Assembly (NCBI GenBank): GCA_964016885.1
Contig: CAXHJY010001274.1
Coordinates: 90,941-154,940, forward strand
From: Eledone cirrhosa
Lineage: Eukaryota
Reading direction: 5' to 3'
DNA length: 64,000 nt
Position 1 is the stretch's first letter. Every line of letters begins with the position of its first letter. The notes under the pieces were generated by a model. It did no database searches. It worked only from the letters and a program-made list of their open reading frames with translations, and was not told the origin of the DNA. Both the position numbers and the translations under genes were made by a program. Positions 2,405 through 26,739 of the stretch are shown piece by piece.

Positions 2405-2832
2405 AAATGAGAACTTTTCCACCTTAAAGTACGTATTTTTTCCTAAATATTATGTGCTATAAATATGTAGAAAATACCATGTTGTTCTCAAACGATATAT
2501 GGCTTTTTCTCTCTCTCTCTCTCTCTATATATATATATACACACACATATATCTTTTAATTTGAAATTATATATAGATAGATAGATAGATAGATAGATAG
2601 ATAGATAGATAGATAGATTTCTTTATTTACCATAAAGGCATAAAAAGAAGGGACAAATACAAAGGGGGAGTTTACATATAATCGAGTAAAAAGGGTGTAA
2701 CATGAAAATAATCGAAAATAACCTCAAAAGGGAGGGGACGTGATGGGGGTTGCACACACCCCCGAAAAAGTGTGCAATCCTTTGCCCGGGGAGCACATGG
2801 AGAAGGTGCTCCCCTCTCCTTTACTTCTTTAC

Positions 2833-5800
2833 CTACAGGATGGTATACAGAGAAGGCCCATTTACACGAGCCATTCTCGCCACTATCACCCACCTTTCAT
2901 AAAACTGCCTGTGGCCAAGCACCTCTCTCTCCATTCTTATCCTTCTTCCGAAGTGATATCGGAAGAAGTAGACCAGACTATGGCCAGAGAGGAAGTTGCC
3001 TGACCTCAGACCTTTCAATCGTGTCCACCAAACAACCTCTTTCAACATGGCTATTACGCACAGAAAAACCGCCTTTGCTTCCTTTGTGAAGAGGGGAGGC
3101 GGTTTGATTGTCATCACGGACTCGGCGGTCAATTTAATCGGCGCCACCCGCGACAGCAGTTGTTCGGCGTAGCCCCACAGATCAGCCACGCCCGGACATT
3201 GCACCAATGCGTGCGCTACGGTTTCTTCGTGACGCACGCATCTAGGGCAAATCTTTTTTGAGGGATCCCTGCCCGGGCGCCCGTGTCTGTAGAGCCTCTC
3301 TCGAACGGGTAGAGCCCCTCGGTAGCACTGCCAGGCCAGTGACTTCTGGAAGTTGTCCATTGGTCCTGGGCCGAAAGTCCTACCGAACAGGCTGGCCAGT
3401 TCGTCTTCTTCCATGTCCAGCGACTCTCCAAGGGTGTCATCGCCCCTGCTAGCCACCAGCTCTCTATAGAATGATGAGGTGGATTCTCCACCGATGGCCC
3501 GGCCCGCTTGCCAGAGAGCCCTGAGCGCCTGAGCACACTCAGTGTGCCAGTCTCCCAGTTTTCCGGATCTTTGCTTGACCCAGGACTGTAGCTCGGTGAG
3601 TGAGACGAGTCTCGGAAAGGCTCGTTTCACGAACGGAGCCCACACCGGTTGACCAGTGAGGAATACCTGTAGGTGCCGTAGCCTTAATGCGTGCCTACGC
3701 ATCATCAACCACGGCATCCCCAGCCCTCCTTTCGAAGGTTGTTGGCAGCAGATGGATCTTCTCACCATAGGAGGACGCTTCTTCCAAAGAAATTGGAAGA
3801 GCATGCGTTCCATGGTGGTGAGTGTTTCCTTAGGGCAAGGCACGACAGTCAGGCGGTAGTAAGTGACGGACGCTATGTAAATGTTCGCCACCTCCGCCCG
3901 GCCTTTTAGGGACAGCTTACACTTGGCCCATTTCTGGGTTAGTGCAAACACCTTGTTCGTAACCTCGTTCCAGTTCTTTTCCACCTGGAGGTCCGGTCCA
4001 AACCAGACCCCAAGCAACTTTACCGGGCCCTCCGTCCAGTGTCCGACGACACCGTCAGGAGGCATCGGTTTGCCTCTCCACGTTCCGAGTTGCAGCCCGA
4101 TGGATTTTTCCCGGTTCAGTTTCGCTCCTGACAACCTTTCGTACTCCTCCAGTAAGGTACCGATCGCCTCGATCTCCGAGTCGGTTGATACCATTACTGT
4201 TACGTCATCGGCGTAGGCCGACACCGCTTTGCTCAATCCTGGTTCCAGGGGGATACCCTGCAACAACTCCAACTTCCTCAGTAAAGGCTCGAGAGTCAAT
4301 ACGTACAGAAGGGAGGAGAGAGGGCACCCCTGTCGAATGGATCGTGTGATTTCGAACGGCTTCGAAAGGTAGCCGTTCACCTTGATCCTAGAACAGATGT
4401 GGTTGCTATGTAGGGCAGTGAAAACAGGACCGAACCCAGCCGCCGCTAGCACCGCATCCAGGTAACCATGGTCGACCCTATCGAAGGCCTTAGACTGATC
4501 CAAGTTGATCAGGGCCCCACCGAAGCCGGGTTTGTTGCCAACCCTCTCTATGATGTATCGCATGAGGTGGAGGTTATCGTGAATGGACCTGGATGGGATA
4601 GCACATGTCTGCGCATCTCCCACCAGGCCACCCACGACAAGCGCCAACCTCTTTGCTAACACCTTGGCCAAAATCTTTAACTCTGTGTTTAGCAGGGTTA
4701 TGGGCCGAAAATTATTTATACTATCCCCCTTTTTCTCGTCCTTCCTCACCAGCGTGACTACGCCCTTGGCTACAGAACAAGGAATTCTCCCGTTCTGCTG
4801 CCAATTGCAGTAGACCGCTTCGAGGAGTTCGGAGAAGAAGACCGGCATTGCTAAATAAAGTTCGTAAGGTATACCATCGAGACCTGGAGATTTGCGTCTG
4901 CTGCATTGGCTCAGCGCATCTCCGATCTCATCAGCCGAGATTGGTCCCTCGCAGGACTCTGCCTCTTTGTTCGAGAGACGCGGCAGGCCGTCGAGGTATG
5001 GACAGAAATCCACGCCCCGGCCCGGACCCTCGCCTCCCCCGAACAATCGGGCAAAGTGCTTTTGAAAGGCCTCGCACATCTGCTTAGGCTCCCGGATCAC
5101 TCGTCCATCTTCGTCTTGCAACGACCGGATGGTGGATCGATTTCCACTTTTAGCTTCTGTCACGCGGGCCCATCCAACGGCTTTGGCCCCCTCATTACCT
5201 AGAGCACGTATTTTACTTCGAATGACGCAGCCTTCATGCTTTGCATCGAAAAACTGGTTCAAGGCCGTCCTCGATGCCAGCACTCTAGCCACATCTTCGC
5301 TCTTGATTGCCTCTTCTAATTTACCTGTTAATTCTTTCTCGTTTCTATTCCTATTGGCAGCTAACATCTTGCTATAACTTATTGATTCTGTTCTAATCTC
5401 TCTTTTGAGAGATGCCCACCATCGGTTGTTGACGATTGCACCCGTCAACCTCTCCTTAACTAATCTGCTAATCCGGTTTCTGTAAGTCTCTTTTGCCGGT
5501 AAAGACAAATTAAGTTTCCAGTAACCGGGACCCTGTCTATGTGTTTTCTCGAGATTGACCACGCAGGTCACTAATTTGTGATCCGTGTAGCCAACCGTGC
5601 GCATTTCTGGACAGCTTAATATGTCCCTATCCTTACTTCTAACTAAGAATCTATCTAAGTACGATCTAGATTGACCACTGTGGTTTCTCCAAGTCCAGGT
5701 AGGCACAGTTGGAAAATCTAGTCGATATCTATCGACCAAGTTAAAACGGTCGAGTAACCCCTTGAGGCTGTTACACCCCCCTCTATTAGGACATGCTCCT

Positions 5801-24750: not shown

Positions 24751-24758
24751 AAAATGGC
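24751..24758 (-). promoter_or_regulatory. YY1-like motif (GCCATTTT) in the 5' UTR of copy B
   Basis: About 35 nt from the element 5' end; L1-type internal promoters often carry a YY1 site. Confidence 0.3.
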
Positions 24759-26739
24759 TGCAACCGAAGTAACACACGTCTACTATCAATGATATATAGA
24801 TAGATAGATAGATAGATTGACAGACAGACAAATAGACAGTCATAGAGACCGACACACAGACAAACAGAGAGGCAGGCAGACATGCAGACAGACACAGATA
24901 GATAGAAAGATATATAGATAGAGAATTATTATGTGTAAGTTATATATTAGAGTACAAATTAGATGCTTGTATCACATAATGGAAGCAATATTTCATGAAC
25001 TTGTACAATTTGTGATTTTTGCTTGTGAGCACGCATGTTTTCTTAATAAATAGAGATGTTTATAGGCAACAGACATGGGAACATACAGGGGAATGAATAA
25101 GATAAGTAAAATTAATTGGTTTTAAACCTGATATCAAAACATAGTCGTCATCTTACTTTTCCTGGAATATGCGTTACACATTGAAATTAAGGATTTATAG
25201 CATTGGCTCACGCAATAGACTCAGTTTTAGGGAAACCGACAAATGACTTAATCGGTCAAAAGATTTAACCAATCACTTACTTTATCCAGGAATGTTGGTC
25301 TTCCTAGTTCACTCTTGAACATATTTGACTTTGGTTGAACCACAAAATCTCCCATATCCACTGGTGAGTGCTTTCTTTGTGTCCATTCACTTAATTCATC
25401 TCTTCCAAACAGAATCGCTTAAGTTGCTCTTAACGTCACACATAGCAACAATTGAACTATATATATATATAACTTGATTGTATTGACTTGTTTGTATTTT
25501 CGTTGTTGTAGTGGCTTTTGTGGTATTCTTTAGCAATTTGTCACAATTTTAACGTATATTTATTACTCTAAGATTTAACTTATCGATTTATCGATATCAT
25601 CTTATTGAGGGCTTCGTGAAAGCTTCTGAGGATTGTTCTTTCGAGGGATGCTAGGCGTAGCTGAAACTTCGATTTTACTCACTATCATTGTTATATACAT
25701 ACACGTACATTTCTCTCTCTCTTAATGTATAAAAAAGACAGTCGTTTCCTCTACTTTAGGTTCTGAGGTAGACGTGTAAATGCCCTGAGGTCTTTTGTTT
25801 ACAAACCGAAAAATAGATCGTGTTAAAACTTAACGTTCCCCGAAAATACCCGTACACGTCACATCACAATAATAATTATAACTTTTTTTAACATAGGTCA
25901 TGGCCAAATATTAAAAGATGGGTTTAGTCGATTTAAATCATTTCCACTTCTTCTCGACTGGTACATATTTTATCGACACCGAAATGATAAAAGGCACAGT
26001 TGACCTCGAATCGTAAAGAGCCGCAATAAATATCGCATACCATTTTTGTCAGACGTTCTAAAGATCAGGCCAATGCACCCTCGTCGTCGTCGTCGTCGTC
26101 GTCGTTGTCGCCGTCGTCGCCGCCGTCGTCGTAGTAGTAGTGGTAGTGGTGGTGGTGGTGGTGGTGGTGGTGGTGGTGGTGGTGGTGGTGTTTGGTAGCA
26201 GTAGTGGTGATGGCGTTGGTGGTGGTGGCGGTGGGTTTAGTAGTAGTAGTGGTGGTGGTTGTGGTATTGGTGGTGGCGGCGGCGAGACGGCGGGGTTGAA
26301 GGTGAAGGTGGCGTAGATTATTTCATTAGTACATATTTATTAATAACGAAGCGATCGCTAATATATCGTAATATATCGGTAATACGTCTTAATACATTAT
26401 ACAGAAACAACAAAACAACCTATATTAAAACAATATCAACTTATGGGTGAACAATTGAGGACGGTCAACGTAATTTATGTTCTTCAGATCTTTGTAAGCT
26501 AATATAAAAATGGTTGTGCTCTCTATCAAAGAGAAATTAAGTTTTCTACCTTCACCCCACTTCTACAAATTATAGCCATATTAACAATATTGACGTGATA
26601 TTTCATCGCAAAATATCATCTATTAGTATATTTGTTATTTCCGATATTATTATATTAGGCGGTAACTTCGTGATCGAGTCTTCAATGAATATTTATATGT
26701 TATTGTGTAAGTATTATCATAAATATGTTATTATACAAG

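Follow-up and report, generated by a model that had tools for sequence, protein, structure and literature searches.

The 64-kb stretch of Eledone cirrhosa DNA analyzed here (the window) contains two related non-LTR retrotransposons, A and B, each bordered on both sides by (GATA)n. Do such elements insert into GATA arrays by preference, and, if so, does the endonuclease or the RNA end choose the site?

Two full-length elements lie between GATA arrays

The first element, copy A, and its surroundings are organized as follows:

2618..8406, minus strand: copy A, a full-length two-ORF APE-RT non-LTR retrotransposon
2569..2617, plus strand: (TA)n-(GATA)10–11 array at the copy A 3′ end
2622..2627, minus strand: AATAAA of copy A, then GAAA and (TCTA)n, without poly(A)
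2748..2818, minus strand: two predicted stem-loops in the copy A 3′UTR, stem sequences kept in B
2833..6258, minus strand: ORF2 of copy A, from the first ATG (frame open from 6291)
6292..8019, minus strand: ORF1 of copy A, 575 amino acids
8249..8291, minus strand: predicted hairpin in the copy A 5′UTR (z of −4.6), with a homologous, weaker stem in B
8407..8507, plus strand: (GATA)19 and a TAGATA/TA-type tail at the copy A 5′ end

The 3′ limit of copy A is at 2618/9 and the 5′ limit at ~8400–8406; the ~6-nt uncertainty at the 5′ boundary arises because CAATCT could itself belong to the repeat as a variant unit. On the sense strand, the 5′ end reads (TATC)19 followed by CAATCTAGC. ORF1 and ORF2 are in one frame, separated by a single stop. 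ORF1 has a single CX2CX4HX4C knuckle (read directly in protein P0002) and a P/T/N-rich tail, while ORF2 contains an APE endonuclease, an RT, and a C-terminal zinc-binding motif. The APE catalytic motifs are present in the sequence, and the endonuclease domain aligns to 2v0s. The RT of copy A lacks four residues found in B and in 3/3 close relatives; among proteins, P0212 and P0003 are close relatives. Folding z-scores of the 3′UTR stem-loops are weak (−1.6 in A and −1.1 in B).

The second element, copy B, has a similar layout:

19104..24790, minus strand: copy B, full-length but decayed
18952..19103, plus strand: compound array at the copy B 3′ end, with a degenerate GACA/GATA outer part and purer GATA beside the element
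19112..19117, minus strand: AATAAA of copy B, then TGGAAAGG and (TATC)n, without poly(A)
19333..22689, minus strand: ORF2 remnant, 70 to 82% amino acid identity to A by segment
22727..24155, minus strand: A-alignable part of the ORF1 remnant, 35 to 39% amino acid identity
24791..24925, plus strand: compound array at the copy B 5′ end, with a GATA core beside the element and a degenerate GACA/GATA outer part

Relative to ORF2 of copy A, copy B has accumulated five frameshifting indels, two in-frame deletions, and four stops. On its sense strand, the 5′ end reads (TATC)4–5 and then TATATC-ATTGATAG, and the 3′ end reads AATAAA-TGGAAAGG-TATC-TATT-(TATC)n.

(GATA)n abuts all four ends of A and B in a single polarity, so that each copy has (TCTA)n on either side in the sense direction. 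Five of the six perfect AGAT-class arrays (at least four units) in the window are located at these ends, the copy B 3′ array being counted twice because it is interrupted. As a background, at least three right-polarity GATA units start within 12 nt of 25 of 52,018 positions (0.05%). With the 3′ arrays granted as tails, the chance of two 5′ GATA matches is ~2 × 10−7 at this window-local, post hoc rate. Poly(A) is absent in both copies: AATAAA is followed by 4 to 8 nt and then by TATC repeats. The sequence-only reading of the window had noted (GATA)n on both flanks in the same polarity and no poly(A), and both observations hold.

A tandem upstream copy as the origin of the 5′ GATA was ruled out, since no third copy is present in the window. 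Both 5′ ends have a GATT variant nearby, but an unrelated array near 11475 contains it as well, so it was not taken as a feature of the family. The TATC run starts at an approximately homologous 5′ position in A and B.

Copies A and B are independent insertions

Across two ORF2 blocks, A and B are 81% identical. The ORF2 comparison gave a dN of 0.106, a dS of 0.63, and a dN/dS of 0.17 (1106 codons), and the mismatch rates at the three codon positions were 13, 10, and 31%. When the flanks of A and B were compared, no homology was found except for simple repeats and short matches. The 5′UTRs are homologous beyond the first 60 nt (score of 77 versus 25 ± 4); homology of the first 60 nt alone was not significant (P = 0.16). 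Given the dN/dS of 0.17 and the unrelated flanks, the conclusion that A and B are independent insertions from separate lineages of one APE-RT LINE group is supported, as had been proposed from the sequence alone.

The A-B gap of only 10.7 kb, the single orientation, and the very microsatellite-rich region would also fit one insertion that was copied nearby or tailed LINEs that landed beside GATA by luck. However, a dN/dS of 0.17 at a dS of 0.63 implies that A and B diverged as selected lineages, their flanks are nonhomologous, and the background rate of 0.05% argues against chance landing. Local duplication or chance is therefore largely refuted, and we consider it very improbable.

Insertion into pre-existing arrays

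A target-site duplication inside a perfect repeat is invisible, so only duplications outside the arrays are detectable. Beyond the full arrays, neither A nor B showed a 10- to 20-nt duplication (up to two mismatches). Applied to three controls from the sister clade described below, this test returned duplications of 16/16 and 16/18 in two of them and only 8/10 in the third. The outer flanks match within each copy and differ between A and B: per 110 nt of outer flank, GACA occurs 8 and 9 times in B and 0 and 0 times in A, and a count of at least 6 was reached in 0 of 10,318 overlapping background windows. The lack of an outer target-site duplication and the matched outer flanks of each copy favor insertion of A and B inside pre-existing (GATA)n, in agreement with the original proposal. 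Equal decay of two old arrays could also explain why both flanks of B are GACA-rich. The sample consists of two copies, both full-length, and no 5′-truncated copy showed GATA at the break. Overall, GATA insertion fairly probably reflects a real preference.

Clade membership and distant relatives

Pfam matches to ORF2 were Exo_endo_phos (6 × 10−8), RVT_1 (1 × 10−26), and zf-RVT (8 × 10−6, just below the cutoff), and the closest solved structure was L1 ORF2p (E = 2 × 10−50). ORF1 of copy A matched zf-CCHC weakly (E = 0.29), and among its atlas neighbors at 0.91, zf-CCHC is present in 75% and 12% of the members; a homolog search with ORF1 returned no hits. Mammalian-type L1 elements have a 3′ poly(A) tail, whereas A and B end in TATC repeats. 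In the Tx1 clade, ORF1 is separate and contains a CCHC zinc knuckle. Judged from sequence, the A/B group likely belongs to Tx1. The ORF2 architecture and the ORF1 knuckle agree with the earlier Tx1 assignment; the RT tree contains neither named Tx1 nor vertebrate L1 sequences, and its backbone, including the branching order of A/B and Keno-like loci, is poorly resolved.

In this tree, the A/B clade forms a separate, fully supported branch. The nearest loci of known context split U1/U2 snRNA genes, as Keno does. Both halves of the split snRNA gene are present at L071 and L013, along with a short duplication, and one snRNA junction each was found at L020 and L002. Keno, a U2 snRNA–specific Tx1 element, and these four snRNA-gene loci have the same ORF2 architecture as A and B at 27 to 30% identity. 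They target an RNA gene, whereas A and B lie in a microsatellite; an A-tail is present in L002 and L013.

Read-derived contigs from 4 of the 13 listed runs were compared with copy A, excluding repeat-containing ends. The A-type family is multicopy and diverse (17,861 contigs in X5, 2,377 of them at ≥99% and 4,162 at <90% identity). Near-identical pieces of A were also present in X1, which is labeled as a second organism. Read depth was higher over ORF2 than over ORF1 and the 5′UTR, a comparison confounded by cross-mapping. GATA was found at none of the 24 loose contig ends listed out of 2,346. At one contig end (X4, position 3800), B-like coding sequence passes into 14 noncoding, non-GATA letters, which could represent an ordinary insertion site of a truncated copy. 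No relatives above 60% with DNA context were found in viral contigs, species genomes, plasmids, or G001. A broad-alignment metagenome scan covering 8 of 64 parts yielded at least 80 distant loci, and no GATA arrays of three or more units were found at 80 such loci.

A sister clade carries junction sequences along

The sister clade of A/B comprises G001/L081 and the proteins P0004, P0005, P0048, and P0051 (support of 100/99). Its ORF2 is 40% identical to that of A/B, and its ORF1 is homologous (E = 2 × 10−13); no shared repeats tying the source animal to the A/B host were found in the G001 contigs. Like A and B, sister elements stop at AATAAA; poly(A) was present at 0 of 64 ends. Unlike A and B, they form head-to-tail arrays of ~6.4- to 6.8-kb units, each followed by an 11- to 18-nt nonrepeat sequence, and (GATA)3 was found near 0 of 9 array ends. 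Every subfamily has its own 11- to 18-nt sequence after AATAAA, which is still found where arrays end at separate host loci (C9 and C19) and matches the 5′ flank fully or partially (16/16, 16/18, and 8/10). Junction sequences are carried along at the 3′ end and apparently also at the 5′ end, where old ones have piled up in C17 and C18.

Since sister elements carry junction sequences, terminal sequence in this clade can be inherited rather than targeted; since the non-GATA sister clade also lacks poly(A), its absence is no argument for targeting or APE specificity. RNA-tail pairing and inherited terminal repeats are therefore real rivals to endonuclease specificity.

Terminal repeats would be inherited if one ancestor had landed in a GATA array and (TATC)n became its own head and tail via read-in and read-through, with A and B now in ordinary insertion sites. 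The full length of both copies, the approximately homologous start of their TATC runs, the junction sequences accumulated at sister 5′ ends, and the one non-GATA junction among read-derived loose ends are consistent with this scenario. It fits poorly with the lack of a duplication outside the array even for the young-looking copy A, with outer flanks that are copy specific and matched across each copy, and with the 135-nt degenerate GACA/GATA head of B, which has no counterpart on A. We consider it unlikely.

Alternatively, the RNA tail may guide homing: the elements would land in pre-existing (GATA)n with an only loosely selective endonuclease, and after the entry of an ancestor into such an array, the (UCUA)n end of its RNA would pair and prime efficiently only at nicks in GATA strands, making the choice self-perpetuating. 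This accounts for all results in the window as well as the reading that we prefer, and it agrees with the persistent, flank-matching tags of the poly(A)-less sister subfamilies. In R2, moreover, insertion is improved by annealing of read-through RNA (excerpt of PMC6795142). However, Bov-B LINEs with microsatellite tails rarely sit in tail-like target flanks (excerpt of PMC13295347), so that a tail by itself is in most cases insufficient for homing, and target choice in Tx1 families is credited mainly to the endonuclease (excerpt of PMC4494074). Tail-guided homing appears rather unlikely.

Other elements in the window

(TA)n adjoins both sides of an element at 52441–56187, which from its motifs we take to be Penelope-like (Pfam gave no match), and of a short end fragment at 8625–8772. 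The suggested use of (TA)n by Penelope-like elements agrees with these flanks, but the window contains 84 (TA)n arrays. A Dong/R4-like remnant at ~43800–45650 (RVT_1, E = 8 × 10−5) ends in a degenerate TAA-rich run; because its 5′ end is undefined, the (TAA)n target suggested for it is no more than a candidate.

Discussion

The reading that we prefer, with confidence evenly balanced, is that A and B are independent insertions of likely Tx1 elements that probably favor pre-existing (GATA)n, with an APE nick and RNA-end pairing as predicted steps. The APE preference for (GATA)n would set the orientation and leave sense (TCTA)n on both sides. The predicted APE nick lies in the GATA strand, and pairing of the freed DNA with the read-through (UCUA)n RNA end would prime copying; such RNA would stop between a few and some tens of bases past AAUAAA, carrying some UCUA units of the donor site. 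The second strand would be cut at a distance of ~16 to 18 nt, as for the sister elements, producing a duplication of about four units hidden in the array, and later slippage may alter array lengths. The element would gain an abundant target in which insertion does little harm.

Waldo and Mino of the R1 clade and Dong of the R4/Dong clade differ from A and B in clade and in repeat unit. These microsatellite-specific non-LTR elements target (ACAY)n, (AC)n, and (TAA)n, respectively, one of them a tetranucleotide (excerpt of PMC3812793). That microsatellite-specific Tx1 families exist, as the sequence-only reading had stated, is documented for Kibi (TC)n and Koshi (TTC)n from teleosts and for crocodilian families in (TTCC)n and (TTTC)n (excerpts of PMC4494074 and PMC3812793). 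These families, compared here by description only, are, like A and B, APE-type non-LTR elements with a simple repeat on both flanks. Their units are pyrimidine-only and the families were defined from many copies, whereas A and B, from an octopod host, have a GATA/TATC unit and are two copies. With TATC/GATA rather than TC, TTC, TTCC, or TTTC as the unit, A and B were not assigned to the Kibi/Koshi group. Target-specific Tx1 families have been defined by the target occurring in >20% of the flanks of copies (excerpt of PMC4494074); GATA flanks were found in 2/2 copies, from different subfamilies, in the 64-kb window. GATA as a Tx1 target was not found in the literature searched, a search that Repbase lay outside. 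Recently active L1-Tx1 elements have been described in a cephalopod (13 families and 421 insertions), with no mention of their insertion targets found in the available portion of that report (PMC13282606).

A broader and quite improbable generalization is a cephalopod LINE clade whose target is written in its RNA. Its elements would end at a hairpin and AAUAAA, lack poly(A), and bring along a few bases of the last site to steer the next insertion, with one branch locked onto (GATA)n in this way and the sister bearing unique junction tags in head-to-tail arrays tens of kilobases long. The target would then be switchable via the RNA 3′ end and not via the endonuclease.

If the preferred reading is true, (GATA)n joins the targets of the Tx1 group, as the first case found in a cephalopod in the literature searched. 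A new simple-repeat target is to be expected for this group and is therefore only modestly surprising. Of greater value are the sister lineages, which share a poly(A)-less 3′ end but insert in contrasting ways and thus make endonuclease preference and RNA-tail pairing testable by swaps; the mechanism of microsatellite targeting has been called not well understood (excerpt of PMC3812793). GATA loci that serve as markers in population genetics would be split or newly created by such insertions, and repeat-targeted gene delivery could make use of a GATA-selective nickase.

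GATA repeats at the ends of copies A and B

The window is AT-rich and crowded with simple repeats, including 84 (TA)n arrays. GATA repeats of one polarity adjoin all four ends of A and B, two minus-strand LINEs, and these ends account for five of the six perfect AGAT-class arrays that the window contains. Read on the sense strand, A is organized as (TATC)19-element-AATAAA GAAA (TCTA)n and B as (TATC)4-5 TATATC-element-AATAAA TGGAAAGG TATC TATT (TATC)n; poly(A) is absent from both 3′ ends. The sequence-only reading, which had described (GATA)n flanking both copies, was right in this respect. 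Elsewhere, a run of three correctly oriented GATA units starts within 12 nt at only 25 of 52,018 positions, a local rate calculated post hoc. Chance is no serious explanation for GATA at the ends of A and B. The U2 site starts with GTATCTG, which resembles the 3′ junction of B, GGTATCTA; this is a resemblance only.

Structure and separate origin of A and B

2618/9 to about 8400-8406, minus strand: copy A
8019-6292: ORF1 of A, 575 aa, one CX2CX4HX4C knuckle
First ATG at 6258: ORF2 of A, same frame as ORF1 with one stop between
19104-24790: copy B, full-length, decayed

ORF2 of A contains APE, RT, and C-terminal zinc-binding domains, including APE endonuclease motifs; among its relatives of solved structure, L1 ORF2p is the best match. 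Four RT residues present in B and in three of three close relatives are absent from A. This gap corresponds to 12 in-frame bases at about 4420, which are present in B, in the related proteins P0003, P0212, and P0216, and in other copies in sequencing run X5. Since these four residues are lacking, open frames are no proof of activity, and A may be defective despite them. Compared with A, B carries five indels that shift the frame, two deletions that keep it, and four stop codons.

The sequence around the ORF1 stop resembles a splice donor (window 6287-6297 and 22715-22730; a loose end in run X11 at 6260): AGG-TAG-GT in A and AGG-TAA-GT in a read-derived subfamily, with TAC at that place in B. 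A PMEVVQP motif common to A and B is found just upstream, and a pyrimidine tract and then the ORF2 ATG follow downstream.

INDEPENDENCE. ORF2 of A and B is 81% identical, with mismatches at 13, 10, and 31% of codon positions 1, 2, and 3 (dN 0.106, dS 0.63, dN/dS 0.17; 1106 codons). Their flanks, 2 kb on each side, have only simple repeats and short matches in common. The dN/dS value and the unlike flanks indicate that A and B come from separately selected lineages, bearing out the earlier proposal of independent insertion. Local duplication as the origin of the pair is at odds with both the codon-position pattern and the non-matching flanks, and we consider chance or local duplication very improbable. 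In the RT tree, A and B are each other's nearest relatives (100/99) within a five-member clade that includes an Argonauta protein. Since the closest named proteins (58-63%) are from Argonauta hians, the host is likely an octopod.

A sister clade without poly(A) or GATA at its ends

The species-genome scan yielded 84 matches on animal-like contigs of one assembled bin (L081/G001), the full-length ones with 40-42% identity. In the RT tree, these elements form the sister clade of A/B (100/99). All 16 contigs with matches were examined, two of them in part. The elements, intact Tx1-like LINEs, are arranged head to tail in units of 6.4-6.8 kb, the longest array having about 11 units or 70 kb.

Poly(A) was found at 0 of the 64 3′ ends located within a contig (66 ORF2 ends in all), which are non-independent and represent about nine subfamilies. 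A loose repeat filter flagged 2 of the 64 as repeat-like, and the one re-found consists of three GA units. In every subfamily, a hairpin ending in AATAAA is followed by the subfamily's own 11-18-nt sequence, which is kept at array ends across different host loci. In 8 of 9 subfamilies, the hairpins fell below p 0.05 when compared with shuffled sequences; those of A (p 0.10) and B (p 0.07) were weaker; the stem sequence differs between subfamilies. Three GATA units were present near 0 of 9 sister array ends (eight computed, contig C18 by eye), and the two G001 arrays of at least five GATA units are kilobases away from the nearest element. Since the sister clade, which is not in GATA, also lacks poly(A), this absence characterizes the clade; it neither signals GATA targeting nor supports the endonuclease explanation of the sequence-only reading. 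The GATA association is restricted to a lineage narrower than the clade.

The bin is titled as a bacterial genome and holds microsatellite-rich animal-like contigs (C3-C19; L081, L083-L144), a contamination flag for that record. The G001 arrays are possibly more unusual than the GATA finding. A 26-kb contig with several copies (proteins P0051/P0207) is probably another such array.

Pre-existing arrays or carried repeats

The leading explanation, the endonuclease one of the sequence-only reading, to which we give an even chance, is target-primed reverse transcription (TPRT) in which APE would nick an already present array on its GATA strand. Transcripts would stop a short way beyond AAUAAA and include a few UCUA units by read-through, and this UCUA end would pair with the DNA end freed by the nick. 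The strand cut by APE would fix insertion orientation, and the roughly four duplicated units would vanish into the array.

The persistent terminal sequence of sister elements keeps two rivals alive. RNA-tail pairing might be the main determinant of the same landing sites, the endonuclease having low selectivity; we regard this reading as rather unlikely, although sister elements do carry terminal sequence along. In the parts of these sources consulted, flanking targets that resemble the tail are rare for tailed Bov-B copies (PMC13295347), and read-through annealing helps R2 (PMC6795142). Alternatively, an inherited TATC head and tail might have entered ordinary sites, which also accords with terminal sequence traveling with sister elements and seems slightly less likely still. 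If the repeats were the elements' own, an ordinary target-site duplication would be expected outside both arrays. A scan for duplications of 10-20 nt, allowing up to 2 mismatches, detected none beyond the full arrays of A and B; in three sister-clade controls, it gave duplications of 16/16, 16/18, and a weak 8/10.

The outer flanks are alike across each copy and unlike between copies. Within 110 nt beyond the GATA cores, GACA words number 8 and 9 for B and 0 and 0 for A, and at least six GACA occurred in 0 of 10,318 overlapping background windows. B appears to have landed in the pure GATA core of a compound GATA/GACA array that was already old, and A in a TA/GATA array. An alternative for the GACA flanks of B is that two old arrays decayed equally.

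Reads of 4 of the 13 listed runs, aligned to copy A, revealed a large, diverse family. GATA was seen at 0 of the 24 loose contig ends listed, of 2,346. In run X4, B-like coding sequence at one contig end gives way to 14 letters that are neither coding nor GATA; this junction could mark a 5′-truncated copy at an ordinary site, or else some later rearrangement. The non-GATA loose ends, the X4 junction, and the full length of both A and B count against targeting. With all readings combined, (GATA)n insertion quite likely reflects a real preference.

Distant relatives and other elements in the window

More distant metagenome relatives split U2 and U1 snRNA genes, much as Keno splits U2, which supports a Tx1-type neighborhood. 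Membership of A and B in the Tx1 clade is likely, the RT tree for this placement having a poorly supported backbone and no named references. Metagenome LINEs at U2/U1 genes were seen at loci L071, L020, L002, L013, and L017, with duplications of about 15 nt where L071 and L013 split the genes; U2-associated LINEs branch at three different points of the RT tree. Contigs of other distant relatives begin or end in (ATGGT)n (L047:1-30), (ATG)n (L060:1-45), (TAC)n (L025:6545-6571), and (TTGT)n (L015:5880-5897), possibly marking further microsatellite-linked families.

52441-56187: element with direct and inverted terminal repeats and (TA)n adjoining both ends, which we take to be Penelope-like from its RT and GIY-YIG motifs
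8625-8772: short end fragment related to the preceding element, between (TA)n runs
About 43800-45650: decayed RT element (RVT_1 E 8e-5), presumably Dong/R4-like by motifs; a degenerate stretch rich in TAA closes it, with (GAT)8 next
29724-31656: highly homogeneous tandem array in which a 46-bp unit occurs 42 times with 98% match

Known targets and GATA as a probable new one

Tx1 targets named in the main text of PMC4494074 are Tx1D, U2, (TC)n, (TTC)n, (TTCC)n, (TTTC)n, and several transposons; "GATA" and "TATC" do not occur in that text, the target-listing Figure 3 being separate from it. The part of PMC3812793 consulted gives ACAY, AC, TC, TTC, and TAA as microsatellite targets, and a telomere-specific Tx1 is cited in that of PMC10088271. 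Octopus vulgaris has 13 recently active L1-Tx1 families according to PMC13282606, in whose available text neither "target" nor "GATA" occurs. The portions consulted of PMC9115989, PMC10294476, and PMC9004415 mention no GATA-targeting LINE. No report of one was found in the full-text literature as searched, and Repbase Reports or Dfam could contain an entry for a GATA-type Tx1. The GATA feature of A and B is real, and GATA probably adds a new unit to the targets of a group noted for choosing simple repeats.
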